Assembly (NCBI GenBank): GCA_964547525.1
Contig: CAZJOD010000001.1
Span: 23,792 to 77,127 of the forward strand
Length of the DNA stretch: 53,336 bases
Direction of reading: 5' to 3'
Origin: an uncultured Clostridiaceae bacterium
Lineage (GTDB): Bacteria; Bacillota; Clostridia; JAAYHZ01
Positions 12,718 through 47,450 of this stretch are shown one piece after another; within the stretch, counting starts at the first letter, position 1; the number at the start of each line of letters is the position of its first letter. The notes beneath the pieces are model-generated. The model was not told the origin of the DNA. It did not search any database and was given only the letters and a program-made list of their open reading frames with translations. The position numbers and the translations under genes were made by a program.

Positions 12718-12914
12718 TGATTCTACTACAAAAACCCTGTTTTATTGCAATAAACGAGCGAACATTGAACCGAAGTTACAATTGGTGAAGGTGTTTTCAA
12801 TCATAAAGCGGCATCGGTATAATTATACCTTATGCAGCGACATTGAAAATGCAAACCAAACCATAATGATTTCAACGCCGGTTCACAAGTAAGTGAGTTA
12901 TTGCAATGAAATCA
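12718..12914 (+). mobile_element. MITE-like repeat, copy 1 (longest, 197 bp)
   Basis: Ends TGATTCTACTACAAAAA...TTATTGCAATGAAATCA; flanked by TATTA/TATTA; core CGAGCGAACATTGAACCGAAGTTA is identical to the copy at 20204. Confidence 0.85.
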
Positions 12915-12927
12915 TATTATATAGTTA

Positions 12928-12955
12928 TTGACGTTTACAGTCTTGTACAGGTTCC
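12928..12955 (-). promoter_or_regulatory. ECF-sigma-type promoter for the SLH-BsuPI gene
   Basis: Minus strand GGAACC-16 nt-CGTCAA resembles SigM/W/X-type (TGAAAC-N16-CGTC) promoters. Confidence 0.55.
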
Positions 12956-13156
12956 GTTTAAATCCAAAAAAAAATAGATTATTATGGAAATTGTGTACCA
13001 AAATTTTGATTACAAAAAATATTACTATATTATGATAATACCATTAATCGTTAATATAACAAATATAATCTATTATCCTAATGAAGAACTTTATTTTATT
13101 CCAATAGACCGGCGAACATTAAAACTTAGTCCCTGTAAAATCAAATATTTTAAAGG

Positions 13157-13188
13157 ATAAAAAAATAGGGCTTGTGCCCTATTTTTAT
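13157..13188 (-). terminator. Intrinsic terminator
   Basis: AAAAATAGGGC-ttgt-GCCCTATTTTT hairpin just downstream of the stop at 13198. Confidence 0.75.
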
Positions 13189-13197
13189 AACAGGTTA

Positions 13198-13647
13198 TTA
13201 ATCGATGGTAATATGTACTTCACAACAATCACCGGTCATTAAAGTGCTCTTGACTGTTATTTTGTCACTACCGACTGTATTATCGGTAACAGCTGTTATC
13301 ATTGCTTTCATAGGATCAAGACACCAGCCGTTACAAGGATTGGCTCCGCCCATCCTTTTAGATAAAGCGCAAAGCTTACAACTGCCGGCTTTTGCTATGT
13401 AACCGTCGGTCACTTTTTCAACTTTCCAATCGGCACACCCGAAAATTTCCGCCAGCTTTGTAAAAACCTCATCAATCGATTCTACACCTAATTGCCGGTT
13501 CATAAGCGGTGCTGTTTGTGCCTGTCTCTCTTTCTTTTTCTCAACCACATAATCCAGTACCTTCATTTTTTCATAGGTATTAACCGTCTCGGCGATAGAT
13601 GCCGCATATGTGTTTTGCAATAAAGCCAATTTCTTTTCAATTTCCAT
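13198..13647 (-). CDS. Small Cys-rich protein, probable V4R/ATC-hydrolase-like fold
   Basis: SCKLC, PCNGWC, STLMTGDCCEV pattern typical of V4R-like domains. Confidence 0.55.
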   Translation of the reverse strand: MEIEKKLALLQNTYAASIAETVNTYEKMKVLDYVVEKKKERQAQTAPLMNRQLGVESIDEVFTKLAEIFGCADWKVEKVTDGYIAKAGSCKLCALSKRMGGANPCNGWCLDPMKAMITAVTDNTVGSDKITVKSTLMTGDCCEVHITID

Positions 13648-13664
13648 TTAAAACACTTCCTTTC

Positions 13665-13678
13665 TTAACGTTCGTTAA
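13665..13678. promoter_or_regulatory. Putative TetR operator, copy 2
   Basis: TTAACGTTCGTTAA, identical to 14275-14288, immediately upstream of the RBS of 13198..13647. Confidence 0.75.
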
Positions 13679-13694
13679 TCATATTTTAAAAAAA

Positions 13695-14255
13695 TTATAG
13701 TGCATCCCTAAGGACACACGAGATTTCGCACCGTATTTCATCTTTAGGCAAATAACGATTTTTTACTACAATACTTTCTATTAAATTTTCCAATAGATGT
13801 ACTAATGTTCTTACTACTACAACTCCGTCTTTACTATTCTTTAAATGCGGCATAACCAATCTGTAGTGTCTTGGTAAGATGGATTTTTCCCACTTATCCA
13901 TTAACTCCATCAATTCATCGTCACCGTCAAACGATAAATATACTTTCACTCCTAATCGATATATTTTTTTATCGTAATCGTTTAAATGGTTTATGATATA
14001 AACGAATTCCGTATAGTAATCAATAATATTATCAATTTTTACTTGTGCTGACAATCTGTTTAACAATTCGAAATAGTCATTTTTAATTATTTCATGGAAT
14101 AGCTCTTTCTTGCTTTTAAAGTAATAATATACCATAGGCAAAGAACAATTTGCATCACCGGCAATATTACGTATGGTAGTTCCGTGATATCCGTCTTTAT
14201 TAAAATGATCTACAGCGATTTCCTTTATCTTTTTTCTTAAATCGGAATCTGTCAT
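13695..14255 (-). CDS. TetR/AcrR family regulator
   Basis: GYHGTTIRNIA..SLPMVYYYFKSKKELF HTH; ATG 14255 with AAAGGA RBS. Confidence 0.9.
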   Translation of the reverse strand: MTDSDLRKKIKEIAVDHFNKDGYHGTTIRNIAGDANCSLPMVYYYFKSKKELFHEIIKNDYFELLNRLSAQVKIDNIIDYYTEFVYIINHLNDYDKKIYRLGVKVYLSFDGDDELMELMDKWEKSILPRHYRLVMPHLKNSKDGVVVVRTLVHLLENLIESIVVKNRYLPKDEIRCEISCVLRDAL

Positions 14256-14274
14256 TTTTATATCCTTTCCATAT

Positions 14275-14318
14275 TTAACGTTCGTTAAGATTATATAACA
14301 CAATAAAAAAAAATGCAA
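14275..14318 (-). promoter_or_regulatory. SigA promoter of tetR with adjacent operator
   Basis: TTGCAT (14318-14313), 17 nt, TATAAT (14295-14290); operator TTAACG-TT-CGTTAA at 14275-14288 lies over the expected start site. Confidence 0.75.
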
Positions 14319-14457
14319 CAGTTTCATATATAAAATTTATCGATTTGTTGATTTTACACATTTCCTATTTAAACGTAACGAATTTGTACTAATATTAAGT
14401 ACCTTTCATTAATTTTATCATATAATAAAGCAGGCAAGTGTATTAAAAGGAGAGGTT

Positions 14458-15744: not shown

Positions 15745-15774
15745 AATACATAAACCCATTAGACATTTCATTGC

Positions 15775-18624: not shown

Positions 18625-18703
18625 TAATTTTACTGCAGTAACATTATTTTACCAAATGCAAAAACATTGAACTGTAAATTCAAAGGTTTATTGTATTAAC
18701 TCA
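18625..18703 (+). mobile_element. Highly degenerate MITE-like repeat copy
   Basis: TAATTTTACTGCAGTAAC..AACATTGAAC..AAGGT resembles the left half of the family; TTATTGTATTAACTCA resembles the right TIR and overlaps the ltaE stop. Confidence 0.35.
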
Positions 18704-20203: not shown

Positions 20204-20344
20204 TGATTATACTGCAAAAATTTTATTTTATTTCAATAACCGAGCGAACATTGAACCGAAGTTATAAAATCAATTGGTGAAGGTATTTTCATTAACCGAT
20301 ATACACCGGATCACAGTAAGTTTGAGTTTATTGCAGTGAAATCA
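20204..20344 (+). mobile_element. MITE-like repeat, copy 2 (141 bp)
   Basis: TGATTATACTGCAAAAA...TTATTGCAGTGAAATCA flanked by CACA/CACA; ends 32 nt before the acyltransferase ATG. Confidence 0.85.
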
Positions 20345-28327: not shown

Positions 28328-28335
28328 AATTTTAC

Positions 28336-28374
28336 AAACCTGCAGCTTTGTTATTGATGCTGCAGGTTTTTTTT
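28336..28374 (+). terminator. Intrinsic terminator
   Basis: AAACCTGCAGC...GCTGCAGGTTT plus T run. Confidence 0.85.
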
Positions 28375-28402
28375 AATTCTTAAATATATAAAAATCAATA
28401 TA

Positions 28403-28444
28403 TGATTTCACTGCAATAAAACCGGGTTTTTTGCAGTAGAATCA
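28403..28444 (-). mobile_element. MITE-like repeat, collapsed 42-bp form
   Basis: Minus strand TGATTCTACTGCAAAAAACCCGGTTTTATTGCAGTGAAATCA, flanked by TATA/TATA; overlaps the 3' end of the 839-aa gene. Confidence 0.85.
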
Positions 28445-32066: not shown

Positions 32067-32100
32067 ATGTAACTCCCTTAATATATAATTCCTTTATTAG

Positions 32101-32127
32101 GACGAACAACAATAGGTAAAAGTTTCA
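32101..32127 (-). promoter_or_regulatory. ECF-sigma (SigM/W/X-type) promoter
   Basis: Minus strand TGAAAC-17 nt-CGTC about 35 nt upstream of ATG 32066. Confidence 0.7.
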
Positions 32128-32185
32128 TTGTTATTATTCCGTAATTTTTCCGATTATAACAATAATACTGTTGTTATAATTTAAA

Positions 32186-32213
32186 GGGTCTGTAATCTTG
32201 TTACTACAGACCC
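32186..32213 (-). terminator. Intrinsic terminator of the acyl-CoA synthetase operon
   Basis: GGGTCTGTA...TACAGACCC stem. Confidence 0.7.
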
Positions 32214-32226
32214 GAGATTTTACCAA

Positions 32227-33891
32227 TCATTTTTCATCATTTCGTCTTATTTGTGCTCTCTTAATTTTACCGCTAATAGTTTTTGGCAGTTCATCCACAA
32301 AGTCGATAATCCGCGGATATTTATAAGGGGCGGTTACCTTTTTAACGTAGTCTTGAATTTCCTTTTTTAACTCTTCGGAAGGTGCATAATTTTTTGCTAG
32401 AATTATTGTAGCCTTAACAACAGTACCTCTTGTTTTATCAGGAGCCCCTGTTACCGCACATTCAACAACGGCAGGATGCTCTATAACGGCGCTTTCCACT
32501 TCAAAAGGACTGATTCTATAACCTGAAGCTTTTATTACATCGTCATTTCTACCTACGAACCAAAAATATCCGTGTTCATCTTTATATACTACATCACCTG
32601 TATGGTAGGTGTCGTCATACCAAACCCTTTCGGTTGCTTCCCTGTCTTTATGGTAACCGAGAAATAGACCTGCAGGTTTATTTGAGTTTGCATTCCGAAT
32701 TACAAGTTCACCTTCAACACCCTCGGCGCAAGGATTACCGTCTTCATCGACAATATCAATATTATATGCCGGATTCGGTTTGCCCATTGATCCCGGTAAA
32801 ACATCAAACCACTCAAAATTAGCAACCAAAACCGAAGTCTCCGTTTGACCGAAACCGTTGAGTATAGGTACTCCGGTTTTTTCTAAAAATTTATTAAAAA
32901 CATCGGGGTTAAGTGGTTCACCGGCTGTTGAACAATGCACCAAAGACGAAAGATCATAATGATCCAAGTTTTGCTGCAACATAAATCTGTATATAGTCGG
33001 TGGAGCGCAAAACGTTTCAAGCTTGTAGCGTTGTATTTTATCCAAGAGGTTACACGGGTCGAATCTATCCATATCATACATAAACATGACCACTCCGCAT
33101 ATCCATTGTCCGTATATTTTACCCCAAGCGAATTTTGCCCAGCCGGAGTCTGCTACTGTAAGATGCCTACCTCCGTCAACAACCCTCTGCCAATACTTTG
33201 CATTTATTATATGTCCTAAAGGATACGTGAAGTCATGCATTGTCATCTTAGGCATACCGGTAGTTCCCGAAGTAAAATATATAAGCATTAAATCATTATT
33301 GATCATATCTTCTTTACCGGTAGGTCTTGTCCAATTTTCCAATGCAGTTTCTAAACAGTCTTCGTAACTTATCCATCCTTGTCTACACCCACCTACCAGC
33401 ATCAGTTTTTCTATTGTCGGAGATCCTTTTAGTGCATTTTCTACGTGATTTATTATATCTGCATGATTATACGCAATAATCATTTTTATCTCGGCGGCAT
33501 TGTTTCTATATATAATGTCTTTTTCGGTAAGTTGATCTGTAGAAGGTATATATATGGCACCAATTTTTGATAAACCCAAGACCAGATAATAAAATTCATA
33601 CCTGCGTCTTAGAATCAACATTACCTTATCACCTTTTTTTATACCTAAACTCTTAAGCATATTGGCCGCTTTATCCGATTGTTTTTTAATTTCACCAAAT
33701 GTTATAAACTTTTCGTCTCCACTATCATTACACCAAATTAAAGCCGGTCTATCAGGTTCAATTTTTGCATACTCATCCATAACATCATATGCAAAATTGA
33801 AATGTTCAGGAACTTTTATTTTTAAATTATTACAAAAATCCTCGTAGGATTCAAAATTTGTTTTTTCAAGAAATTTATATGCCAGATTCAA
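32227..33891 (-). CDS. Acyl-CoA synthetase (AMP-forming, medium/short-chain type)
   Basis: YFTSGTTGMPK, GFGQTE, YHTGD, PYKYPR, LPKTISGKI. Confidence 0.92.
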   Translation of the reverse strand: MNLAYKFLEKTNFESYEDFCNNLKIKVPEHFNFAYDVMDEYAKIEPDRPALIWCNDSGDEKFITFGEIKKQSDKAANMLKSLGIKKGDKVMLILRRRYEFYYLVLGLSKIGAIYIPSTDQLTEKDIIYRNNAAEIKMIIAYNHADIINHVENALKGSPTIEKLMLVGGCRQGWISYEDCLETALENWTRPTGKEDMINNDLMLIYFTSGTTGMPKMTMHDFTYPLGHIINAKYWQRVVDGGRHLTVADSGWAKFAWGKIYGQWICGVVMFMYDMDRFDPCNLLDKIQRYKLETFCAPPTIYRFMLQQNLDHYDLSSLVHCSTAGEPLNPDVFNKFLEKTGVPILNGFGQTETSVLVANFEWFDVLPGSMGKPNPAYNIDIVDEDGNPCAEGVEGELVIRNANSNKPAGLFLGYHKDREATERVWYDDTYHTGDVVYKDEHGYFWFVGRNDDVIKASGYRISPFEVESAVIEHPAVVECAVTGAPDKTRGTVVKATIILAKNYAPSEELKKEIQDYVKKVTAPYKYPRIIDFVDELPKTISGKIKRAQIRRNDEK

Positions 33892-33903
33892 TTTAAATTC
33901 TCC

Positions 33904-34452
33904 TTATAATAAAATTACTGTTATGAATTTTGCCACTTTTCCTTCATCAACCAACATTTTATGAGGAATCATGGAATTAAAATATAATGAATCACCGGGT
34001 TTGAGAAGGTATTCGTTTTTACCGACTACAACCTTCATTTTCCCTTCTAAACAATAATTAAATTCCTGCCCTTTATGGGAAACTAAATCCGGTGAGTTAT
34101 CAGCATCAAGCGTCACAAGCAAAGGTTCGATTTTCCTGTTTGCATACTTATAGGCAAGACTTTGAAAGTCGTATTGGTCATATCTTTCAACTTTGAGCCC
34201 TTCTCCTTGTTTTACATGGCATACATCATGCAGCTTAGGAGATACTCCTGTGAGAATCTCAGTCATGTCAACATGATAAAAATCGGACAATTCGTATAAA
34301 ATACTTACAGGTATATCATCTTCACCGTTTTCATACTTTATATATTCATCCACATCCAAATAAACAGACTTTGCAACTTCCTGTTCCGAAATACCCAAAA
34401 TCATTCTTAAACCTTTTATTCTAGCTGCAATGTCCTTCACCTTTTCATTCAT
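33904..34452 (-). CDS. XRE-family HTH + cupin regulator
   Basis: IAARIKGLR HTH; HKGQEF..GDSLYFNS..PH cupin; commonly precedes this synthetase type. Confidence 0.9.
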   Translation of the reverse strand: MNEKVKDIAARIKGLRMILGISEQEVAKSVYLDVDEYIKYENGEDDIPVSILYELSDFYHVDMTEILTGVSPKLHDVCHVKQGEGLKVERYDQYDFQSLAYKYANRKIEPLLVTLDADNSPDLVSHKGQEFNYCLEGKMKVVVGKNEYLLKPGDSLYFNSMIPHKMLVDEGKVAKFITVILL

Positions 34453-34552
34453 AAAATTCAACCCTTTCATGTGGCATTTATAAATTATCAATATTTATAT
34501 AAGTAATTTAAGTCATTATAAACTTTTATGTTTAATTTTTTTAATATATGCC

Positions 34553-34683
34553 TGATAATTTATTGCAATAACAAGCAATATTGAACGGAATTTTAAAATC
34601 AATTTGGGTAAAGGTATTTTAAAATTACAAAGCGGTATCGGTACACTCCGGTTCAAAATAAATCGATTATTGCAGTGAAATCA
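34553..34683 (+). mobile_element. MITE-like repeat copy, left end eroded
   Basis: TTATTGCAATAAC..ATTGAACGGAA..AAGGTATTTT..AAAGCGGTATCGGTACACTCCGGTTCA..TTATTGCAGTGAAATCA; left boundary approximate. Confidence 0.8.
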
Positions 34684-35007
34684 TTATTTATTATATCAAA
34701 TTTACGTTAAGTATAACAACTAAAAGTGCCTTAAAAGAAAAACAGGTAATCATATTTAGATTCTTAAAATCAAGATTGCCTGTCTTTATTAATATTTTCT
34801 TTTCTTTTTTACCGTACAATATCATATTATGAACCATTACTGTAAATCTTGGGCTAACAACTTGGGAGGTAAAGCAACAGGGGAAAACCTATTTTAATTT
34901 TTTATATCGGTTCTCCCCTACCATAAGTTTATAATCGAAAAATACATTCAAGTTAATTTTCACACCCGATAATATTATTGTCGAAATAAACATTGCTTAG
35001 GTAAAAT

Positions 35008-35844
35008 TTACTTGAACAGCTCAATAACCTTTTTCATATAAGCGACGCTTTCGGGAACTCCTATACTTTCATCTTCTACCCCTTCATACTCCAGTGCAAC
35101 ATAACCGTTATACCCTACAGCCTTAAGTTCAGCCAAGCATGCTGCATGGTCCACATCACCTTTGCCTACTGTGCACGCTTTAGTGCCCCATCCCCACGGG
35201 TTATTCGAATCCGGTACTTTCTTAAAATCCTTAAAATGAACATATGCACAAAAGTCGCGAGCTATCTTTGTTCCTTGTACACCTTCTTGACCTCCGGCCA
35301 TGTAGTTGCCCACATCGATTGTAGCACGGACATAATCAGAACCTACCGCTTTTAACATTTCCACTTGCTCTTGTCCTGTACATGGAAGCCCGCCATGATT
35401 TTCCAGGGCAAGTATAAGACCAAGTTTCTCCGCTTCGGTTGATAGTCTGCATAGAGCATCGATTACTCTTTTAAATGCATCGGTTTTTGTTTGTTCATCA
35501 GCTTCAAGTCTTTTTAAGCCACCACCGAAAATCCTTGATACAGGTGCTCCTACATCGGAAGCCACCTCCATCCATCCGACAGTTTTTTTGATCTCGTCTT
35601 CGAATTTGGCCGGATCGCTAATATTAAAGTTTGTCGATAGCGAAAGGCCTGACAGTTTTAAACCGCTACGATACAAAGCGTCTTTGACTCTTTTAGCGGC
35701 ATCGTTTACGTCACCTAAAAATCTTACATGAAAGTCAAGCGCATCTACATCAAGTGCCCGAACTTCATCACATAATCGGTCTAAATTCCAACCTTCGGCA
35801 GCCCAGCGTCTATGAAAGCTATAATGACAAATCGATATTTTCAC
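35008..35844 (-). CDS. Sugar phosphate isomerase/epimerase (xylose-isomerase-like TIM barrel)
   Basis: LALENHGG, DVGN, VHFKD, ALEYEG; GTG start. Confidence 0.85.
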   Translation of the reverse strand: MKISICHYSFHRRWAAEGWNLDRLCDEVRALDVDALDFHVRFLGDVNDAAKRVKDALYRSGLKLSGLSLSTNFNISDPAKFEDEIKKTVGWMEVASDVGAPVSRIFGGGLKRLEADEQTKTDAFKRVIDALCRLSTEAEKLGLILALENHGGLPCTGQEQVEMLKAVGSDYVRATIDVGNYMAGGQEGVQGTKIARDFCAYVHFKDFKKVPDSNNPWGWGTKACTVGKGDVDHAACLAELKAVGYNGYVALEYEGVEDESIGVPESVAYMKKVIELFK

Positions 35845-36015
35845 CTTCTTACCCTCCTCGATTATGATATATATACTTTCATTATACATGATTTTGTGAA
35901 AAAAATATTTTTATATCGGATATAAAGGGTTATCTAAAAAAATCTTTCATGATACACATTAACTAAAAAGAAGTGACTACTTAACTCTTAACGTTGAATA
36001 TAATAAATTAAATAC

Positions 36016-36118
36016 TGATTTCACTGTAATAACTCACTTACTGTAAACCTGAGTGTACCGATACTACTTTACCATTAAAATAACTTTCACCTAAAAAGAG
36101 GTTTTTGCAGTAGAATTA
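36016..36118 (-). mobile_element. MITE-like repeat copy (103 bp) overlapping the ddl 3' end
   Basis: Minus strand TAATTCTACTGCAAAAAC..GGTGAAAGTTATTTT..GTATCGGTACACTCAGGTTTACAGTAAGTGAGTTATTACAGTGAAATCA; flanks ATAC/ATGC. Confidence 0.85.
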
Positions 36119-37143
36119 ATGCTGGAATTAACGATTTTACAACATAATTGATCATAGGAAATATCAACAGCCGCCGCTTCTTGCGGTAGTAAACTTGTAG
36201 GCGTCATTCCGGGTAATGTATTTGCTTCCAAACAGTAAAACTCCTCATCCTTATCCATTATAAAGTCAATCCGTGAGTAGCTACCCAATCGTAAAGCCGT
36301 ATGTACTTCCAAAGCAATTTTTTGTACCTTCAGAGTTAAGCTTTCAGGTAAGTTTGCCGGACAAATCTCTTCTGTCAATCCCGATTGGTACTTATTTTTG
36401 TAATCATAGAATCCTTCTTTCGGTATTATTTCAATAACAGGTAACGGTTTCTCGTTTAATATACCAATAGAAAATTCTCTACCGGAAATCATTTTTTCTA
36501 TCATGATACACGAATCAACATCCTTTGCCATATCTACAGCCTTATTCAGGTCTTTCCGATCTTTTACCACTGATACACCTATGCTTGAACCTGCACTGCA
36601 AGGCTTTATGACACAGGGTAGACCGATAAGATCAATTATTTTTTCTTCTGAAACCGAATTATCAAATATCATCCAATCGGGTGTGGGTAGTGCCGATTGA
36701 CGTAATATTTTTTTTGTCAGATCCTTATCCATTGCCAAAAGACTCCCTACATAGCCCGTTCCTGTATATTTTACTCCCATTACATCGAAAATCGCCTGGA
36801 TTTGTCCGTTTTCTCCCATCCCACCATGCAAAGCTATAAAAACTACATCAGCCGCTTTGCATATCTCCAATATATTTCTACCTATAAGAGAATTCCTATG
36901 AATGTATCGTTTTTTTATTTCATTTAAATCAGGCTTGTTTTCGGGTATTTTATAGGTATTTTCAGTTACTTGATTTAAAAATAAACGATCAAAATCATTA
37001 CCTTCAATCAAAATGTCTTCATATACATCTATCAGTAATACACGATGCCCGGCTTTTCTTAATGCATTGGAAATAAGACATCCCGATGATAAAGAGACAT
37101 CTCTTTCCGGACTTAAACCCCCTGCTAACACAACAATCTTCAT
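36091..37143 (-). CDS. ddl: D-alanine--D-alanine ligase
   Basis: GGLSPERDVSLSSG, LHGGMGENG, GSSIG, FYDYKNKY, EANTLPGMTPTSLLP. Confidence 0.92.
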   Translation of the reverse strand: MKIVVLAGGLSPERDVSLSSGCLISNALRKAGHRVLLIDVYEDILIEGNDFDRLFLNQVTENTYKIPENKPDLNEIKKRYIHRNSLIGRNILEICKAADVVFIALHGGMGENGQIQAIFDVMGVKYTGTGYVGSLLAMDKDLTKKILRQSALPTPDWMIFDNSVSEEKIIDLIGLPCVIKPCSAGSSIGVSVVKDRKDLNKAVDMAKDVDSCIMIEKMISGREFSIGILNEKPLPVIEIIPKEGFYDYKNKYQSGLTEEICPANLPESLTLKVQKIALEVHTALRLGSYSRIDFIMDKDEEFYCLEANTLPGMTPTSLLPQEAAAVDISYDQLCCKIVNSSINSTAKTSF

Positions 37144-37285
37144 AAAGACCTCCATTGTTAAAACATATTACTTTTGAATACTATGCATATTCAGTAGGAT
37201 TAGTTGACAAGTGAAAAAATAAAACATCCATACCAAATAAAAATTTTTCTTTTCTATATTATATTTAAATAAATAGCAATACAAC

Positions 37286-37319
37286 TTGCCAAAAGTGCTT
37301 GATATATTGCTAAAAGTGC
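37286..37319. promoter_or_regulatory. AraC-type tandem binding sites
   Basis: TTGCCAAAAGTGC (37286) and TTGCTAAAAGTGC (37307): direct repeat with a 21-bp period between divergent ddl and araC. Confidence 0.65.
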
Positions 37320-37358
37320 AATATAATTTAGATAAACATCAAGAAAAGGTTTTATACC

Positions 37359-38225
37359 ATGTCATATAAAGATCAATATGGTAAAAGGGGATATTTAAAC
37401 GAAGACTTTCTTTTCTTTTATTTGAAAGACAGTAAAGGAGAACAATTTGAATATCACTACCACGAATTTTATAAAATCATAATATTTATATCAGGCAAGG
37501 TGACATATCTAATTGAAGGAAAAGCATATATACTCAAACCTTGGGATATCCTTTTAATTACGGATAAAGACATACACAAAGCGCTAATAGAAACAAATGA
37601 ACCTTATGAAAGATATATAATTTGGTTAAATCCGAAATTCCTTGAAAAAAACAGTTGCTCTAATAATAATTTATTGACCTGCTTTGAACATCATTTTAAT
37701 TACAAAGAAAATCTGCTTAGCCTTTCCCCTGATGATAAGGTTACAATTAAAAATAATTTGCTACAACTGGAGAATTGCTGCAAGAATCAATTGTTCGGTA
37801 CCTCAATTGAAAAAAACCTTTTATTTTTACTGTTTATAATTAATTTAAACAGAATATTTATATATACCGATCGTTCATTTTGTGCATTAAAAATACAATT
37901 TGACGAAACCGTCAACAAGATCATCAATTATATCAACACAAATATTAATTGTAATCTTACAATAGAAGAACTGTCTAAAAAATTTTATATTAGTAAGTAT
38001 ACATTAATGCATAAATTTAAAAAACAAACCGGTTTTACAGTACATCAATTTATACTTCAAAAAAGGCTTATAGCTGCAAGTAATCTTATCAAGACCGGTG
38101 GATCTTTGTCAGAAATAAGTTATGAATGTGGATTTACCGATTATTCCGGTTTTGTAAGAGCATTTAAAAGGTTTTACGGCCTTTCGCCAAAGCAATTACA
38201 AAATAAACAGTCCGCTTCAAAATAG
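37359..38225 (+). CDS. AraC family regulator
   Basis: HYHEFY cupin; C-terminal CGFTDYSGFVRAFKRFYGLSP. Confidence 0.92.
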   Translation: MSYKDQYGKRGYLNEDFLFFYLKDSKGEQFEYHYHEFYKIIIFISGKVTYLIEGKAYILKPWDILLITDKDIHKALIETNEPYERYIIWLNPKFLEKNSCSNNNLLTCFEHHFNYKENLLSLSPDDKVTIKNNLLQLENCCKNQLFGTSIEKNLLFLLFIINLNRIFIYTDRSFCALKIQFDETVNKIINYINTNINCNLTIEELSKKFYISKYTLMHKFKKQTGFTVHQFILQKRLIAASNLIKTGGSLSEISYECGFTDYSGFVRAFKRFYGLSPKQLQNKQSASK

Positions 38226-38434
38226 AACTTTATTATTTTATTACATATGACCCATTTAAAATAAAATTTTTGTAAGTAAAATCATAAATCCCTTTTAGAT
38301 AAATGATTGTAAAGAAATATTTTAATCTTTTTACGATATATACACTTTTTTAGAAAGCAATTCAATCTTTATTATTTTTCTAAATGGCACATAATAAATT
38401 TAAATTGATCGTTTTGTAATATGAGAGGTATTTT

Positions 38435-39127
38435 ATGGAATGTAGGAAATATAAACTAATAACTTTATCAATATTTATGATAATAACAACAACATCTTGT
38501 AGAAATAATGAAGAAAATACAAATGAAAACCAAATAAAATTTAATATGGATACTATAAATGAAGATATTCAAACTGAAGTAACGGATAACATTTTCCCTG
38601 TAGACCCCATTATATTGGAAAATCGTATTGAACCGGTAATTCAAAAAATTGAAATCGGCAGCTTTACAACACCACTTATAAATAGAACTAAAAATAGAGT
38701 AACCAATATAAAAATAGCATCTGATAAAATAGATAAACATATCATTCTACCCGGACAAGAATTTTCTTTTAATGGGGTAGTTGGTAAGGCTACTAAGGAT
38801 AAAGGCTATAAAGCGGCGCCAATATTTATATCAACTCGGGAAGGTACAAAGAGTGTATATGACACGGGAGGTGGAATATGCCAATTATCCAGTACTCTTT
38901 ATAACGCTGCAAAAAAAGCCGGTTTGAAAATAACCGAAAGAAATAGTCATACAAAAAAAGTGCCTTATATTGAAAAGGGTGCCGATGCTACAATAGCCTA
39001 CGGTAGTGCCGATCTTAAGTTTATAAATTCAATTATACACCCCGTCGAATTAAGAGTTTATTTAAAAGATAAGGAACTTACTGTAAAAGTATATTCAATT
39101 GAAGGCTATGAGGAATATATAGGATAA
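38435..39127 (+). CDS. VanW-family lipoprotein
   Basis: PGQEFSFN, GGGICQLSSTLYNA, DATIAYG..DLKF; N-terminal hydrophobic stretch ending in TSC. Confidence 0.85.
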   Translation: MECRKYKLITLSIFMIITTTSCRNNEENTNENQIKFNMDTINEDIQTEVTDNIFPVDPIILENRIEPVIQKIEIGSFTTPLINRTKNRVTNIKIASDKIDKHIILPGQEFSFNGVVGKATKDKGYKAAPIFISTREGTKSVYDTGGGICQLSSTLYNAAKKAGLKITERNSHTKKVPYIEKGADATIAYGSADLKFINSIIHPVELRVYLKDKELTVKVYSIEGYEEYIG

Positions 39128-39165
39128 AAAATTGTAGCAAAAATAACCATAAATAAAAGATATAC

Positions 39166-39207
39166 AAATAAATATAGGCAAGGAATTGATACCTTGCCTT
39201 ATTTATT
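39166..39207. terminator. Bidirectional terminator
   Basis: AGGCAAGG...CCTTGCCT stem with A/T-rich flanks between convergent genes. Confidence 0.7.
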
Positions 39208-39329
39208 AAATAGGCTACATTTTTAATACTCGATTTTTAAAATGTACGCCGACCCGGGGACTCGATACGGCCGCGGGTCTCATTTATTTGAAAAAATCCT
39301 TTTTAAATCTTCTTATTTTACTTAAGTGT

Positions 39330-41525
39330 CTACAAATCATGCATTGTTCTAGCTATCACATCATCTTGCAAATCCGATGGCAACTGAGTGAAATATGCAC
39401 TATATCCTCCAACCCTTACTATTAGATTTTTATATGCATCAGGATTTTTCTTCGCTTCCAGTAATTCCTGAGCGTTTACTATATTTATCTGTACCTGCTG
39501 TCCACCCGTTTTAAAAAAAGTTTTTATGAGAGTTTTCATCTTATGGGTTGTTTCACTATCCTTCATCAAATCTTTACTAAATTTTAAATTCAACACATAA
39601 CCTGAAGAAGTGTATTTATGATGAATTTTCGATACCGATTTCAATAAAGCTGTCGGTCCGGATACATCCATACCCTGACAAGAACCAACCGAGTCACTTA
39701 CCGGAGTTTTTGACGACCGTCCATCCGGTGTAGCGCCGACAAATCGACCATATATGGGTGCTCGTGTAAAAGTACTACATCCGCCACCATATAAACCTCC
39801 CCTGTATGTTTTGTGCTTTGCCAAAATGCCATAAAAATGGTCTATGATTTCACAAGCTATTTTATCAACTTCATCTTGATCATTTCCATAATGCTGACAA
39901 CGATTTTTTATCATAGCCTGTATATTTTCGTATCCCTTAAAATCGAGTTTTAAGATTTCCAAAAGCTTTTTTATCGTCAGTAACTCAGTGTCAAAAACCA
40001 AGTACTTTACAGCGTAAAGAGAATCCGCAGTGTTTGCAATTCCTTCTGTCAATATCTGTCCATGATTATATCTTGCTCCCCCGTTTCTGAATTCACGAGC
40101 ATTTTCAATACAATCCGAAATTAATAAAGTTCTAAACGGATCCGGAGCAAATTTTGCATATGCCAATTGAGACTTATTTGCAGAATCTATCATTAAATTT
40201 GTAAAATATTCTACTTGCTCTTTATATGCATCCATAACCTGCTTAAAATCGGTAAAGCTTTCGGGATCTTTGGTATCGGGACCCAAACGTTCACCTGTCA
40301 GAGGACAGATTCCTGCATTTAAAGCAAGTTCGAAACATTTTAAAAGATTTAACTCACCATCTTCGAGACCCATATTGGACTTTCCTTGTATATCTATCTG
40401 GTTACAACCATTCATGGCATAGTCACGTGCATCCTCTACAGGCATATCATAATTCAACATAACATCAATAACTGCTTTGTCATTATATAATGCAGGCATA
40501 CCGATTCCTGTTTTGACGGTTTCCATAGCTTTATCCCACAATTTTTCAGGTGTTTTATCATGACATCTCATAGTCAGATTAGGTGCTCTGAATTTATATT
40601 TTTTTGCAGTATCTAAAATCATGTATGATAGATCGTTTGTAGCATCGGATCCATCAGGTTTTTGACCTCCTATACAAAGATTCCACGCCCTTTCCTTTTC
40701 AAAAAATACCCATATGTTTTCTAATAAAACCTGTGCCGATGTTTCGTCGATTTCACCGGATTCCAATGAAGCTGCCAAATACGGGTACATATATTGATCA
40801 AATCGTCCGGGCGAATCGATTCCGTCGAAGCAAAACACAAGACGGAAGCATTGAAGCGCTTCTCGCCAGGTTTTTGCAGGATTTAAAGGTACTTTACGTA
40901 GTATTGATTCCATAATACTAAGTTCTTTTATTAAATTTCCATTTTCAGAGGTTTCTATTAATTGCTTCACTGCGTCGGCAAAACGTGTGGCAAAAGTTTC
41001 AAATGCCTTACAAATAACTAATAATGACGATAGAAGCTCATGCTCTTCGTTTGATGTTATATGCTCCATACGAGCTATAATATTTCTTTTCAAGCCGGAT
41101 GTCCCTAATTTTAAGATACAGTCATAATCCAAAAGGGTATGTCCACCCCAACCGCCACCCCAGTAGACTTTCATATGTCCCGTTCGATTTTGCTCTTGTG
41201 TTAAAAGTTCACTTATTTTTTTATGGGTTGTTTCATTTTCAAAATAATCTAATATTTCTTGTATTTTTTGAGTGATTTTTGGGTCGGTGTTTTTTTCTAT
41301 TATTCTCTTTGCAAGATCATGATTTACGGTGATACCCGACCCATAATGGTAACGTATTATTGTTTGTGGAAACGGATGCCCTGCAAATTTATCGACAACA
41401 TCAATGTATATAGGCATAGTTTCGACAGTCCTTAAAATACCACATGCAATCCGATAAACGGGTAAATGATTATTATTGCTACAATACGCTTCTGCAAAAG
41501 GTTCACCCCAATAATTAGACTCCAT
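39330..41525 (-). CDS. Glycyl radical enzyme (PFL-like family), substrate unknown
   Basis: GRFDQYMYP, GATPDGR, C-terminal LIVRVGGYSAYF glycyl loop; Cys loop MNGCNQ; ATG 41525 with AAAGGAG. Confidence 0.9.
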   Translation of the reverse strand: MESNYWGEPFAEAYCSNNNHLPVYRIACGILRTVETMPIYIDVVDKFAGHPFPQTIIRYHYGSGITVNHDLAKRIIEKNTDPKITQKIQEILDYFENETTHKKISELLTQEQNRTGHMKVYWGGGWGGHTLLDYDCILKLGTSGLKRNIIARMEHITSNEEHELLSSLLVICKAFETFATRFADAVKQLIETSENGNLIKELSIMESILRKVPLNPAKTWREALQCFRLVFCFDGIDSPGRFDQYMYPYLAASLESGEIDETSAQVLLENIWVFFEKERAWNLCIGGQKPDGSDATNDLSYMILDTAKKYKFRAPNLTMRCHDKTPEKLWDKAMETVKTGIGMPALYNDKAVIDVMLNYDMPVEDARDYAMNGCNQIDIQGKSNMGLEDGELNLLKCFELALNAGICPLTGERLGPDTKDPESFTDFKQVMDAYKEQVEYFTNLMIDSANKSQLAYAKFAPDPFRTLLISDCIENAREFRNGGARYNHGQILTEGIANTADSLYAVKYLVFDTELLTIKKLLEILKLDFKGYENIQAMIKNRCQHYGNDQDEVDKIACEIIDHFYGILAKHKTYRGGLYGGGCSTFTRAPIYGRFVGATPDGRSSKTPVSDSVGSCQGMDVSGPTALLKSVSKIHHKYTSSGYVLNLKFSKDLMKDSETTHKMKTLIKTFFKTGGQQVQINIVNAQELLEAKKNPDAYKNLIVRVGGYSAYFTQLPSDLQDDVIARTMHDL

Positions 41526-41536
41526 ATAAACTCCTT

Positions 41537-41692
41537 TCACTGCCGTTCAAAGACAGCCGGTAACGCTTTTACCCATAGTAGAGGATATTTAATCGCAGTA
41601 TTCCGCTGTATCTCAGTATCATCGGATACATGCGGCAAATCGAACCATAAATCTATATAATCTTTATTCAAATAAGCTAATCCAAAGAACAT
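41537..41692 (-). CDS. Small unannotated ORF (51 aa; 57 aa from ATG 41710)
   Basis: AAGAAGGTGA RBS, MFFGLAYLNKDYIDLWFDLPHVSDDTEIQRNTAIKYPLLWVKALPAVFERQ*; its stop abuts the GRE RBS. Confidence 0.45.
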   Translation of the reverse strand: MFFGLAYLNKDYIDLWFDLPHVSDDTEIQRNTAIKYPLLWVKALPAVFERQ

Positions 41693-41968
41693 CCAAATCA
41701 CCTTCTTCATTAATTAAAGCTTTATAAATCAAGTTTAACATACAAGTATAACCGGTACAATCATTTCGTATTGATGTAAAATATAAACTTTACCTACATT
41801 ATCGTTTGTAGCGTTTGATTTTGATATTACATAGCTTGACATTTCCTATACGAAAACAGTCATATACTACTAATGTTAAGTCATAAACTCAGTAAATTTT
41901 TTAGGTAACAGTAGTATAATTGCGCTTATAATTACAAAACAAAAAAGTTTAATTATTAAAATCTATAT

Positions 41969-43279
41969 ATGCAATTTGAAAAGAATGTGAGTACTTCTAT
42001 TTATATGGTTAATAAAAAGTTTTTAAATAGATTTAAAAGAAACAATACTAAAAGTCAAATTCTATTTATTATTGACAGCCTTGTTATAAACGGAGCATAT
42101 CTGATAACGGGAGGTATATTCCTTTCAGGTTACGCTATTTACTTGGGTGCCGGAGATTTTCTCACCGCATTGCTTAACAGCGGTACTCATTATGCAACAA
42201 TTTTATCTTTGTTGTCTTTTTTCCTTTTAGAAAAAAGGGCCAAAAGAAAAAATTTACTATTAACATTGAATATAATATCCAGAACCTTGATGGTTATAAT
42301 TGCGATATTACCTATGATTTTCCGTAATAATACCATAAATCTTATACTAATTACTATTTTTGTAATTGCATCTGAGATAGTTTGGGGAATTTACAGGATC
42401 GGTTGGACTGTATGGATGATGACTACTGTTCCAAAAGAATCTAAAACCGAATACATATATAGCAGAACTTTTTACACAAGACTGTTTATGTCGGTTATAT
42501 CCGTATTGGTAGGATTTGTTCTTGACATATTTAATAAAAGTTATACCGGTTTTCTAGTTATTTTTGCATTTAGCTATATATTATCATTACTTGACGTTTA
42601 CATACTTAAACAGATTGATGAACCCGAATATAAAATTTCCGGCGAAGTATCCCTAAATTTAAAGAAGTTTTTTGAACCGGTACATATAAAAGAATATCGC
42701 AGCTTTCTAATCTTTATTTTCTTATTTTACCTCGGTTATACTATGGCTACATCATTCACACCCACATATATGATAAGGTATTTGGTAATTGACTATAAAT
42801 ACATATCTATATTCAGTTTTATTTCACAAGGTGTTATGATAGTTACCAATCCCTATTGGTCAAAAATCGAAAGAGCCAAAGGTTTTGGTTTTACAATTTG
42901 TGCAGGAGCGTTTTTTACCATAAGCCCCTTATTAATTTTATCATTTGTGACCAAAGACACTTGGATTCTTTTGTTTTTATCAAATATTACGGCCGGTATC
43001 GGTATGGGAGGATTTACTTCATTATTTACTTACCGATATGAAATTATGCCTGATGACGACAGAACAATTTACGAAGGATGGTATTATTTTTCTTTCGGTT
43101 TAAGCGTACTTATCGCACCGTTCATGGGTAAATTGGTAATAGACATGATCCCTGAATTCACAACTTCTATTTTTCAACACAGTCAGATTCAATTGTTAAA
43201 CCTAATATCCTTTGTTCTACTTAGTATATTATTGTATTTATTTTTTATAAACCCGTCGAAAGGTAGAAACAAAATATAG
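41969..43279 (+). CDS. MFS transporter
   Basis: About 12 hydrophobic segments in two bundles; start may instead be ATG 42005. Confidence 0.85.
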   Translation: MQFEKNVSTSIYMVNKKFLNRFKRNNTKSQILFIIDSLVINGAYLITGGIFLSGYAIYLGAGDFLTALLNSGTHYATILSLLSFFLLEKRAKRKNLLLTLNIISRTLMVIIAILPMIFRNNTINLILITIFVIASEIVWGIYRIGWTVWMMTTVPKESKTEYIYSRTFYTRLFMSVISVLVGFVLDIFNKSYTGFLVIFAFSYILSLLDVYILKQIDEPEYKISGEVSLNLKKFFEPVHIKEYRSFLIFIFLFYLGYTMATSFTPTYMIRYLVIDYKYISIFSFISQGVMIVTNPYWSKIERAKGFGFTICAGAFFTISPLLILSFVTKDTWILLFLSNITAGIGMGGFTSLFTYRYEIMPDDDRTIYEGWYYFSFGLSVLIAPFMGKLVIDMIPEFTTSIFQHSQIQLLNLISFVLLSILLYLFFINPSKGRNKI

Positions 43280-43325
43280 TTCTTGGGGAATATAACAAAG
43301 AAACTATAGTGTTATAAATAACAAA

Positions 43326-43355
43326 GTATAAATTGTATTTTTGTTGTACATAATA
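43326..43355 (+). promoter_or_regulatory. SigG-type (forespore) promoter
   Basis: GTATA-18 nt-CATAATA matches the B. subtilis SigG consensus GHATR-N18-CATAnTA. Confidence 0.55.
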
Positions 43356-43376
43356 ATACAAAAAAGGATATGACAA

Positions 43377-43475
43377 ATGAATGACGATTTAAAATTTTTT
43401 AAAGGACTAATAAATGCTTTTTTATTAAGCATTCCTATTTGGGCACTAATTTTTTATTTGATTTATAGATTATAA
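43377..43475 (+). CDS. 32-aa single-pass membrane peptide
   Basis: AAAGGA RBS; MNDDLKFFKGLINAFLLSIPIWALIFYLIYRL*. Confidence 0.65.
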   Translation: MNDDLKFFKGLINAFLLSIPIWALIFYLIYRL

Positions 43476-43543
43476 CTTATCCCTATTTTTAATCGATTCT
43501 GAGTTTATAATATAATCTTCAAATTATCGTTTTGTAAATATTT

Positions 43544-45559
43544 TTAATCATCCCAATGTAAGGCCGCTTTACATACTTCAGAGCCGGAGCAATAATAAAC
43601 TGCGTTTTTTGTTACAGCAACTCCTGTAGTAGCAGGTTTAGGTAAACTTCCTATACATTTGACCGTGTATTCATCAGGATCAATTTTTAATATAGATTTT
43701 GACATAAGTAAATAAATAGTACCGTCACTACAAGCTATCATACTTTGGCGTACAACGTTACCATAAATAGATAAATTGCTTTGGTAAATTATCTTTAAGG
43801 TCCTATAATCATATACAAAATAAATCCCGTTTGTTGTAATACCATGAACGGCATTTCCCGCCCATACAAGCTGAGCGATTTCCTTTACATTATTCATCGG
43901 ATAATTTATATTGGTTATCTCATATGTCACCGGATTAAACTCAAACAAAGCCGCGGTATTACAAACCGGTAAAGCTCCCCCTTGCGGTAAAACCGTCGAG
44001 CCACAAATTACATTTCCATTCGGTAATTCCGCCATAGCCAATATTCCATGATACGGTAGCATGTTTTCGTTTTCTATAACCGATGTTTTTCTTGTTTCTA
44101 CATTATATATAGCCATACCGGCACCAACTACGCCATACCCACCATATCCGGAAAACAAACATGTTTTACCGTCGGATAAAGCTAAAGCCGAACGAGGTCT
44201 GGATATGGCACTTACTATTTTCTCTTGATGGGGATTTATATTAGATTTATCGCTAATAATACCTTGTTTGGTATCAATTCTATAAATATATCCACCGGAA
44301 TAAGCTGCACCCACAAGTATGTCACCCTGATAAGCATATGCACATATATTACCGACACTTGAACCGATACATTTGATCCCATGGTCTGTTACCGTATCGG
44401 TTAACGGATCAACTGTAAAAACATTCATCGGGTGATTTGTCGTACCGTATATCATTCCGTCGGGTCCGAGAGTTATTGGGGAACAAGCCGCTCCTTCACA
44501 TAAATAATCGAATACCACTGTAGTCTTTTCATCAGTTTCAGGATGCCAATATGTAAAAGTATGAGCGGGATAGTCGGCGTTTAAAAAATTAGGTGCGTCA
44601 TCGTATGGTATGTGTAAACCCCAAGGATAATCATTGTTGTAGTAATTCCTTGTTATCAAAGCTTTATCTACTATCTCCCCGTTTTTTAATACCCACCATG
44701 AATCTAGATATTCCATGTCACTGTTCGTTTTACCGGTTACACTCATCTTAGCTACCACTTCTCCGAGCCTCGTTTTATATACCAAAGCACTGCCCGTTCC
44801 CGGTAGCCGCGGGAATATATATTTTATCTCGCCGGTGTCGGTATTGTAACCTATTATATTTACTTCGGCTGTTCCTATCGCACTGTAGACCCATCCGCAA
44901 GAATCCGCCGCTTGAGTTGTCGAATACATCTGGACATCATCTAACAATCCAAGGTTGGTAACTTTTTTTGTTTGTGGATCAAAGGCATAAAGATACAGCT
45001 TAGGATAATTTGAAAAATAAATAAACCCTTCATCATCTTCACAAAATCCCCAACCTACCAGGTTCGCACCCATAGAAGACAGGTTTGTTATTGTGGTGAA
45101 CTCTTTTATAACCGGATCGAACTCATAAAAGTAAGCGTTTGCACCGGTATAAAACTTACCTCCTTGTGATGCAAAAGACTTATATGGAAAAGCTGAGGTA
45201 TTACCGTCAAAGATATGTTGTGAGGATTTGCCGGTATGTAAATCAATACAAACTAGAAATCCCCTTGATGGTAATACGGCATAAAATCTATTGTCGCTAC
45301 CTTTAACTATCGCACCTGAACGTGCTTCTGCCGAGTTTGAAGCTATACCTAGTGATGTTACTGTCAAAGATACAACATTTTTATAAGTATATTTATCTTC
45401 TTGGCAAACTTTTACCGGCATCGTCTCATCTGAACCGGTATAAGTTTCAACCGATGATAAATCTGTCCTTTCACCGTTTCCATCTTGTACGGTATTGTGT
45501 TGGCACCCGACAAATAAAGTAAAAATCAGAATCAGGAGTATCAAAATACTAAATTCCAT
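43544..45559 (-). CDS. Lipoprotein with beta-propeller repeats
   Basis: GGAGG RBS, lipobox LFVGC; repeated GPDGMIYG/FTVDP, FEFNP blade-like motifs. Confidence 0.75.
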   Translation of the reverse strand: MEFSILILLILIFTLFVGCQHNTVQDGNGERTDLSSVETYTGSDETMPVKVCQEDKYTYKNVVSLTVTSLGIASNSAEARSGAIVKGSDNRFYAVLPSRGFLVCIDLHTGKSSQHIFDGNTSAFPYKSFASQGGKFYTGANAYFYEFDPVIKEFTTITNLSSMGANLVGWGFCEDDEGFIYFSNYPKLYLYAFDPQTKKVTNLGLLDDVQMYSTTQAADSCGWVYSAIGTAEVNIIGYNTDTGEIKYIFPRLPGTGSALVYKTRLGEVVAKMSVTGKTNSDMEYLDSWWVLKNGEIVDKALITRNYYNNDYPWGLHIPYDDAPNFLNADYPAHTFTYWHPETDEKTTVVFDYLCEGAACSPITLGPDGMIYGTTNHPMNVFTVDPLTDTVTDHGIKCIGSSVGNICAYAYQGDILVGAAYSGGYIYRIDTKQGIISDKSNINPHQEKIVSAISRPRSALALSDGKTCLFSGYGGYGVVGAGMAIYNVETRKTSVIENENMLPYHGILAMAELPNGNVICGSTVLPQGGALPVCNTAALFEFNPVTYEITNINYPMNNVKEIAQLVWAGNAVHGITTNGIYFVYDYRTLKIIYQSNLSIYGNVVRQSMIACSDGTIYLLMSKSILKIDPDEYTVKCIGSLPKPATTGVAVTKNAVYYCSGSEVCKAALHWDD

Positions 45560-45640
45560 AAAAAAACCTCCAGTCAGAAACTTCGTTTTCAAAATTAAAA
45601 CGTAATATTTTATATATTGTACTTATTTATAATTACTATA

Positions 45641-45732
45641 TGATTCAACTTCAAAAACTTAATTTATAGTTAAAAGGATTTTCAACAACCGGTACACTCC
45701 GATAACTGCAGCGAATTATTGCAGTGAAATAT
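45641..45732 (+). mobile_element. MITE-like repeat copy (92 bp)
   Basis: TGATTCAACTTCAAAAAC..CGGTACACTCCG..TTATTGCAGTGAAATAT flanked by TATA/TATA. Confidence 0.75.
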
Positions 45733-45786
45733 TATATCAATTATATAATTTTAAATTCTTAATAATGCTGTTGTTTTATATAAATT

Positions 45787-45812
45787 TTCAGGGACGATCT
45801 CTCACCCCTGAA
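45787..45812 (-). terminator. Probable terminator
   Basis: TTCAGGG...CCCTGAA stem with an adjacent A run after the stop at 45824. Confidence 0.55.
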
Positions 45813-45823
45813 TTTCATAATTA

Positions 45824-47113
45824 TTATTTGATTTCTTCTAAATAGTCACATATAATATCTCCGGACTCTCTGCAAACCGGGCCTATATAGCCATAATAAC
45901 GGTGTGCAATTTTTTCATAAATGGACTTGTCATATAATTCTCCGTACGGTAAATATCCGAAAACACCGCTTGAGTATCCCATAACGACTGTTTTACCGGT
46001 ACCAAAAATTTCTTTAATTCGAAATCCCAGGTCGTGAAAAGTTTCAAACGGTAATGCCACTATATTTAAATCTCCTAATTTCCAGACTTTGATAACAGGA
46101 TGTATTTCAGTCATCGGATTTCCCGATTCGTACGCTTTAATAAAATTATCCGCCCATACTACTTTAACAGCTTCAACTTGAAGTGATGCAAAATGCGGTT
46201 TATAATTAGCATCTATTATTTTTTTACATTCGGCAAGTGAATCCTTTTTAATCTGCATGAATCCTTCAAGTGTATAGTCGGGTACTAAAGGTATTGTCAG
46301 CTCTTTGGAATAGCATTTAATATTTATATCATCATTTTTTAATTCATATTTAGACGCTAATACCGAATCGGCAAGCAGATTGCCGGCTTTTTCAGTCGCT
46401 TCGAATGAAAAGCGGTATCTCGGATCTATATCTCCACAGCAACCTTGAGTAAAAATAACAGCGACATCATCGCCATATACTTCATTTAGCTTGCTTTTTG
46501 TATAATAAGGATAATCGGCGGAGTAGCTATAATTTCTGCTGTCTAGTGTAACCGGATGACATGCATAATTTATAATAACAGATTTTAATTTGTCTGTTCC
46601 TGTCTCAAATATTTTTATTACTCCGACTTCCTTGTCGATCACATCCATATAATTGGGATCTTTGTATGCCATTAATATCCTGTTCATGCCTATTTCGCAT
46701 TCTCCCGTAGAATATTCAAAAAATCCTTCAAAAGTATTGCATACCGCCTTTTTCGCCAAATCAATCAAATCATTCTGTGTTTCCAAAAGCCATGATTGTT
46801 CGGCGGAACCACAGCCATACAATGTGCCTGATGCCGGACCGGCATGAGTATGTATCGAAGTCAGTATAATATTGCTCTTTGGTATATTAATCGCACGGCT
46901 TATCTTATATTCCGTTATTTTAGAATAATCAGGATCAAAACCTAGTATCTCACATACTATTAACATAGATTTTATACCCTTGGATTCTATATAGACGGCA
47001 CTTATTTTCAATTGGTCATGTATATCGATAGCTCCGGTGGCTCTACCCGCATATCCTGTCATTTGCATTCCTAATGGTGTTCTTACATTTATCTCTGCAA
47101 GTCCGATTTTCAT
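45824..47113 (-). CDS. Neutral/alkaline ceramidase-like hydrolase
   Basis: HTHAGP, NYACHPV, SADYP, QGCCGDIDP motifs. Confidence 0.8.
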   Translation of the reverse strand: MKIGLAEINVRTPLGMQMTGYAGRATGAIDIHDQLKISAVYIESKGIKSMLIVCEILGFDPDYSKITEYKISRAINIPKSNIILTSIHTHAGPASGTLYGCGSAEQSWLLETQNDLIDLAKKAVCNTFEGFFEYSTGECEIGMNRILMAYKDPNYMDVIDKEVGVIKIFETGTDKLKSVIINYACHPVTLDSRNYSYSADYPYYTKSKLNEVYGDDVAVIFTQGCCGDIDPRYRFSFEATEKAGNLLADSVLASKYELKNDDINIKCYSKELTIPLVPDYTLEGFMQIKKDSLAECKKIIDANYKPHFASLQVEAVKVVWADNFIKAYESGNPMTEIHPVIKVWKLGDLNIVALPFETFHDLGFRIKEIFGTGKTVVMGYSSGVFGYLPYGELYDKSIYEKIAHRYYGYIGPVCRESGDIICDYLEEIK

Positions 47114-47247
47114 CACTTTAATCCTCCTAATACTTTATTAATTCGTTATATTATGATTGGTACTACATTACTACATAAAAGATTATACCATACATAAGCA
47201 ACCATAAAATCATGTCTTATATTTATGTATTTTAATATTTATATAAT

Positions 47248-47284
47248 TGATTTCACTACAATAAGAATTATTACTGTAGAATCT
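47248..47284 (-). mobile_element. MITE-like repeat, collapsed 37-bp form
   Basis: TGATTTCACTACAATAAGAATTATTACTGTAGAATCT; flanks TAAT/TAAA. Confidence 0.65.
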
Positions 47285-47322
47285 TAAATTTGCATCTATA
47301 TAAAAATATTATTAGTCCGGTT

Positions 47323-47354
47323 TTATAATGATTATACCTTTATAATGATTATTT
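47323..47354. promoter_or_regulatory. Two tandem Per-box-like sites
   Basis: TTATAATGATTATAC and TTATAATGATTATTT versus the Per box TTATAATnATTATAA (14/15 and 13/15). Confidence 0.6.
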
Positions 47355-47356
47355 AA

Positions 47357-47450
47357 TAAATATACTGTAAAAAATTAATTTAAGATGAAGTTATTTTCAA
47401 TAATAAGGCGATAATCGGTTTACAGTAAGTGAGTTATTGCATTTTAACCT
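47357..47450 (+). mobile_element. Degenerate MITE-like repeat copy
   Basis: TATACTGTAAAAAA..TGAAGTTATTTTCAA..CGGTTTACAGTAAGTGAGTTATTGCA; both termini eroded. Confidence 0.6.

Follow-up and report, generated by a model that had tools for sequence, protein, structure and literature searches.

What are the short related sequences that recur in both orientations between positions 12,718 and 47,450 of this DNA of an uncultured Clostridiaceae bacterium, and which enzyme spread them? The stretch analysed (53,336 nucleotides, here called the window) lies within contig C1 of a metagenome-assembled genome (MAG) of 4.03 Mb in 347 contigs, 96% complete and with a G+C content of 35%. DNA near-identical to the window is present in sludge metagenome runs. 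A first-pass annotation had described the repeats as a non-autonomous family resembling miniature inverted-repeat transposable elements (MITEs), a description borne out by inverted ends, 4- or 5-bp flank duplications and ~200 loci. The repeats are very probably MITEs, whose terminal inverted repeats serve a DDE transposase acting in trans and are shared with an IS1182-like insertion sequence (IS) of a relative. The elements are small and noncoding, are bounded by terminal inverted repeats, lie between duplications that vary from copy to copy, are dispersed, and share their ends with an IS found in a genome of the same family (G001) and not in the window's own assembly.

The family is large. 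A profile seeded from the annotated repeats and iterated once (nhmmer, 148-nt consensus, genome-wide cut-off E<0.01) matches the genome at 173 places, of which 137 reach E<1e-5. End pairs and nhmmer-only matches together make ~209 loci, or 21.5 kb (0.53% of the assembly), in line with the earlier estimate of hundreds genome-wide. By crude open reading frame (ORF) calls (greedy, minimum length 90 aa), 201 of the 209 loci are intergenic, and their numbers in tandem, divergent and convergent spacers roughly follow spacer length. The element is delimited by 18-nt ends, the left one reading TGATTCTACTGCAAAAAC and the right one, read inward, TGATTTCACTGCAATAAC. The two consensus sequences agree at 15 of 18 positions. 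Pairing both motifs (at most 3 mismatches each, inward-facing, at most 320 nt apart) defines a set of 95 elements; 80 of these combine one left-type with one right-type end, and the ends are conserved across these 80 oriented pairs. A degenerate 18-nt end pattern, allowing at most 1 mismatch, has 156 matches in the window's genome and none when reversed. The repeat family is far beyond chance.

Short direct duplications flank many copies. Among 63 full copies defined by the model, an exact 5-bp duplication is found at 19 and a 4-bp one at 13 (32 in total), where shuffled flank pairing predicts 1.3 and 2.1; none of 6–8 bp is observed. The end-paired set gives a similar result: exact duplications of 4 bp at 24, of 5 bp at 17 and of 6 bp at 1 of the 95 elements, with 3.8, 1.3 and 0.7 expected from shuffled flanks. 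When the flanks are moved 7 nt outward, the counts become 4, 0 and 0 of 95. The duplicated words are A/T-rich and vary between copies. The short flank duplications noted in the first-pass annotation are thus enriched genome-wide (4–5 bp at 41/95, against ~5 expected).

Within the window, the copies and possible copies are as follows.

12718..12914, plus strand: full copy, 197 nt long, carrying an additional internal module; flanks TATTA/TATTA (nhmmer E 2e-29, model positions 1–148)
13083..13143, plus strand: partial copy with the left-internal module only, repeat family D2 (nhmmer E 0.0013 genome-wide, 1.8e-5 window-only)
18627..18676, plus strand: possible degenerate remnant, weakly supported (nhmmer E 0.015 window-only; no match in the genome-wide search)
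20204..20344, plus strand: full copy of 141 nt; flanks CACA/CACA (nhmmer E 1e-31)
28403..28444, minus strand: mini-element of 42 nt, consisting of just the two ends; flanks TATA/TATA (E 0.0028 window-only)
34553..34683, plus strand: copy with a degenerate left end (nhmmer span 34559–34683, E 2.3e-17, model positions 24–148)
36016..36118, minus strand: 103-nt copy; imperfect flanks ATAC/ATGC (nhmmer span 36016–36116)
45641..45732, plus strand: 92-nt copy; flanks TATA/TATA (nhmmer span 45641–45730, E 2.7e-8)
47248..47284, minus strand: putative 37-nt mini-element with decayed ends, recognised by inspection alone; flanks TAAT/TAAA
47380..47441, plus strand: partial copy with right-internal modules (nhmmer E 1.5e-5, model positions 72–139)

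The five strong copies (at 12718, 20204, 34553, 36016 and 45641) score between 1e-31 and 2.7e-8 genome-wide and between 1.4e-33 and 3.6e-10 in the window-only search; all had been listed in the first-pass annotation, whose end motifs, internal blocks and flank pairs are all present in the sequence as quoted. The short copy at 28403–28444, an ends-only element, was likewise rightly listed. For the stretches that had been called degenerate the outcome is mixed. Inside 47357–47450 lies the partial copy at 47380–47441, and within 18625–18703 only the weak remnant at 18627–18676 is recovered. The copy at 47248–47284 is visible by eye with its flanks; it is not significant by nhmmer (E 2.8, window-only) and is missed by the end-pair search at up to 3 mismatches. 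The partial copy at 13083–13143 is an addition to the earlier list. A modest local excess is seen, the 53-kb window holding 8 of the ~209 loci where ~2.8 would be expected at the genome-wide density. Outside the MITE family, a 34-nt inverted repeat (47325–47358 and 47521–47554, 88% complementary, arms 162 nt apart) lies just upstream of a PerR-like gene (47587–48006).

The end-paired elements measure 36–294 nt, have no coding capacity and fall into discrete size classes: 36–43 nt (35 elements), 53–68 nt (7), 92–121 nt (18), 129–163 nt (20), 182–253 nt (12) and 285–294 nt (3). The longer elements are mosaics of a few internal modules, each of which is present or absent. A second subfamily, of 182–294 nt, has the same ends and an unrelated interior, so that at least two interior subfamilies exist in all. 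The mini-elements have their own, differing duplications, of 4–6 bp at 15 of 35, and have therefore moved as minis. The 41-nt mini form probably arose by a deletion between two direct copies of an 8-nt word, one in the left-internal part and the other in the right end; once formed, it would have spread on its own.

The likely partner was recognised through the ends. A BLAST search with the whole 141-nt copy against 30 relatives gave no match in any of them and missed a relation that was later found by the ends alone. The degenerate end pattern was searched at up to 1 mismatch in 401 genomes of the class, with 0 or 1 matches for each reversed-pattern control. Next to the 156 matches of the window's own genome (G000), G001 has 23 (reversed control 0), G121 has 13, G046 has 8, G210 and G148 have 5 each and G021 has 4; another 58 genomes have a match, mostly one or two each. 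In G001, eight end pairs are spaced 1,959–1,962 bp apart, and solitary ends are present as well. Seven copies of this 1,959-bp element were retrieved, with mutual identities of 98.6–99.9%. Six of them are flanked by exact duplications of 4 or 5 bp (TATTA, AGTT, ATGT, TCCT, ACATA, TTAA), and the seventh, inserted within a TA run, has 6 bp duplicated. A 545-aa ORF is intact in six of the seven copies and frameshifted in the other one. The left-end consensus of the MITEs is identical to the left end of this IS at 18 of 18 positions. G210 contains two copies of a relative of 1,962–3 bp; its transposase and the G001 protein share 59% identity, and one end of this relative agrees with the right end of the MITEs at 17 of 18 positions. 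The route proposed in the first-pass annotation, of looking for a transposase flanked by the same terminal repeats, thus found none in the organism's own assembly and a 1,959-bp IS in G001.

By its sequence, the 545-aa transposase is IS1182-like. Both proteins match the Pfam family DDE_Tnp_1_6 (PF13751), with 45.2 bits for G001 and 55.3 bits for G210 (cut-off 25.1). The best NCBIfam model is IS1182 (NF033551; E 1.7e-42, model positions 36–487 of 488), and no match to rve (PF00665) is found. Annotated IS1182-family transposases of plasmids are only 23–24% identical to it, and the nearest plasmid matches are haloarchaeal genes named “transposase” (24–28% identical). In the protein collection, 716 relatives were found at E<=1e-10; the best 120 of them are mostly ~540 aa long, are located on ~2-kb metagenome contigs and are named “transposase” or “hypothetical protein”. 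At E<=1e-20, 15 of the 399 class genomes scored have a match, including broken copies in G121, G270 and G337. Small elements with the same ends, unrelated interiors and mostly 4-bp duplications are present in G121, G046, G148, G298, G191 and G137.

On this basis, an IS1182-like DDE transposase would bind the ~18-nt ends in trans, and the element would be inserted at cuts staggered by 4 or 5 bp in A/T-rich target DNA. In this lineage, the elements were probably mobilised by a transposase of the clade to which the G001 IS belongs.

Several observations weigh against the MITE reading with an IS1182-like partner. No transposase of the partner clade is found in the window's assembly, where tblastn gives nothing better than E 0.2 and the scoring of the class genomes no match at E<=1e-20, and none of the end pairs 300–20,000 nt apart in this genome encloses a transposase. 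We infer mobilisation by the IS1182-like clade from a relative and not from this organism. The MITE and IS ends are unrelated past ~18–24 nt, and the score of the transposase against the IS1182 model (145.9 bits) is below the curated NCBI cut-off of 270. The typing of the ends is partly circular, because it uses the same positions that distinguish left from right. An exact 4–5-bp duplication is confined to 41 of the 95 end-paired elements, the others having an imperfect one or none, and neither an empty site nor a presence/absence polymorphism was seen in strain-variant contigs and low-depth run contigs.

The statement that the window contains no transposase holds. Since the assembly is a fragmented MAG, failure to find the gene in it does not equal absence of the gene. 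End pairs 1.2–2 kb apart were considered as an autonomous element and rejected, as they enclose housekeeping genes; the interiors beside orphan ends have no multi-copy sequence in common except paralogous amidohydrolase genes. The four PF01609 matches of the genome (on C76/C165, C51 and C139, the last with a DDE_5 gene) were likewise considered as partners and belong to other elements: the IS of C76 and C165 has different ends, and no inverted-repeat ends of the MITE type are found around the C51 and C139 genes.

The repeats were also considered as a structured regulatory RNA, or as a REP-like protein-binding repeat, kept by selection and spread without DDE transposition. Nearly all copies are intergenic, as such a role would allow; the 42-nt mini-element at 28403–28444 forms a hairpin of -14.5 kcal/mol (z -5.7 against shuffles), and the 141-nt copy also folds better than shuffles (z -2.8). 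A hairpin from paired ends is, however, expected of any inverted repeat, and one 103-nt copy shows no advantage over its shuffled versions (z +0.5). Over 80 oriented elements, the terminal stem has 10 compensatory changes against 9.3 expected from shuffling, next to 193 one-sided changes, and a mismatch at positions 6–7 (CT left, TC right) is conserved in 56 of the 80. With respect to co-directional neighbour genes, the copies show only a weak bias in orientation (36 same, 54 opposite), and the structured RNA raised in the first-pass annotation finds no backing in Rfam, a scan of the whole window at gathering thresholds giving 0 matches. The variable 4–5-bp flank duplications are strongly enriched, by which the family also differs from REP/BIME-type repeats, which have no target duplication and depend on a Y1 (RAYT) transposase. 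A selected RNA or binding repeat is therefore very improbable. An origin from an IS3- or IS21-type element with an rve-type DDE transposase, the link first proposed, would account for ends that start with TG and finish with CA, and duplications of 4–5 bp fit the range of the IS3 family. It is at odds with the lack of any PF00665 match in the 96%-complete assembly, in a search for which control genomes were positive. It also conflicts with the one autonomous element in which these ends were found, whose DDE_Tnp_1_6, IS1182-like transposase has no rve match. This origin is largely refuted and scarcely credible.

A different question is whether the family continues to move in this organism, through an autonomous copy missed by short-read assembly or binning. 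Such a loss would be compatible with a 347-contig assembly and with homologous transposases found mostly on stand-alone ~2-kb metagenome contigs; several copies are cut at contig ends, including ends of the second subfamily on two contigs, and the closest pairs of copies reach 95% identity. The median pairwise identity is only 64–81%, however, and the few, shallow strain comparisons available show no insertion polymorphism. An exact 20-nt repeat pattern has no locus in the genome-contig collection, own genome excluded, and 8 loci in metagenome contigs, all 97–100% identical to the organism's own contigs, which therefore add no other species. The four variant loci (97–99.3% identity) differ by indels of 4–26 nt, and two of these, of 4 nt each, fall inside a copy or on its border. 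All copies are retained, in a sample biased by the choice of loci containing the repeat. Contigs of four sludge runs were compared with 28000–47900 at a depth of ~4–5x. They span the copies at 28403, 36016, 45641 and 47248, and none of their joints removes an element; those recorded in this comparison are long-range with short sides. The nearest genomes are no closer than the same family, and at ddl, the one locus compared, they lack local synteny with the window. There, the Ddl protein of G002 is 62% identical with a different C-terminal tail, and no precise empty site can be read because the downstream neighbourhood differs. Continued activity is accordingly doubtful. The family appears to be old in this lineage, and it would now be an old, decaying population, given that no partner transposase is assembled in the genome and that the copies are diverged.

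Some of these MITEs form the ends of host genes. The copy at 36016–36118 (minus strand) contributes the final 8 codons and the stop codon to the ddl ORF (36091–37155, minus strand), with the tail NSTAKTSF encoded at 36091–36118. Homology of this Ddl to its relatives ends near residue 346–347 of 354; the closest ones, from Thermoclostridium sp. and Clostridiales MAGs, are 65% identical. From the mini-element at 28403–28444 (minus strand) come the final 11 codons and the stop codon of an 839-aa ORF (28408–30927, minus strand), whose product has a rhamnosidase-like jelly-roll domain and the tail DSTAKNPVLLQ (28408–28444). Both ORFs run into their element at its left end, and they use the same frame there. 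Elsewhere in the genome, overlap with the 3' end of a called ORF is seen for two further copies.

Other repeats and mobile elements were noticed. Four copies of a 40-nt segment, spaced by multiples of 144 nt, are located at 8190–8805 inside a 1,217-aa ORF (7957–11610, minus strand) with weak matches to TPR-type families; they are probably a protein repeat array. Outside the window, C76:3–800 and C165:6347–7830 carry another IS, which encodes a DDE_Tnp_1 transposase and whose ends start AGCTTCT. Fragments of its right end, 68–109 nt long, recur on at least five other contigs and may constitute a second family of small elements. At C139:684–2814, the ORF of a DDE_5 (IS701-like) transposase is preceded on the same strand by DruA-family ORFs, which appear to be split by frameshifts.

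Among known families, the Correia elements of Neisseria and the RUP elements of Streptococcus pneumoniae are linked to other IS families and generate TA duplications. They resemble the present family as high-copy intergenic MITEs of bacteria, with inverted ends and with full-length and internally deleted sizes. In contrast to their TA duplication, the present elements have duplications of 4–5 bp and ends shared with an IS1182-like element. The partner IS of G001 and G210 resembles the IS1182 family (NF033551, PF13751) in its single long DDE_Tnp_1_6 ORF, inverted ends and short duplications; it differs in a transposase score below the curated cut-off and in the 23–24% identity to plasmid members. 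A published account characterises IS1182 as a heterogeneous family (PMC5678879). A literature search, with ISfinder outside its scope, returned no description of this MITE family or of MITEs in this lineage.

The family is an ordinary kind of mobile DNA, and MITEs of an IS1182-family element are already in print (PMC3852290). According to a table of that report, MITEs of Methanosarcina acetivorans are assigned to the IS1182-family ISMac2, with a length of 160–169 bp, a 4-bp direct repeat, inverted repeats of 25–26 bp and 7–14 copies (Kamoun et al. 2013). Going by this table, the two families are alike in being small, noncoding and multicopy, with terminal inverted repeats, a short direct repeat and an attributed IS1182-family partner. 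Compared by these features and not by sequence, the archaeal MITEs differ from those described here, which have ends of ~18 nt, ~200 loci, sizes of 36–294 nt and no partner in the assembly.

We tentatively suggest a wider picture, which may well prove too broad: the ends could define an unnamed IS1182-like clade (~1.96 kb, 4–5-bp duplications). Such a clade would pass from one family of anaerobic Clostridia to another and would have seeded, in several genomes, independent MITE families whose interiors are unrelated. In the present lineage, the MITEs would have expanded to ~200 loci while the transposase was lost, and a few copies would have been taken up as 3' ends and stops of host genes, ddl among them.

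The MITE family itself leaves general ideas about transposition as they are. What is gained is a clean, checkable high-copy MITE family in an uncultured Clostridia genome from sludge, with a likely autonomous partner identified only via relatives. It is useful for cataloguing the IS1182-like clade with its MITE derivatives and for genome annotation, because the repeats break assemblies and change the 3' ends of genes.

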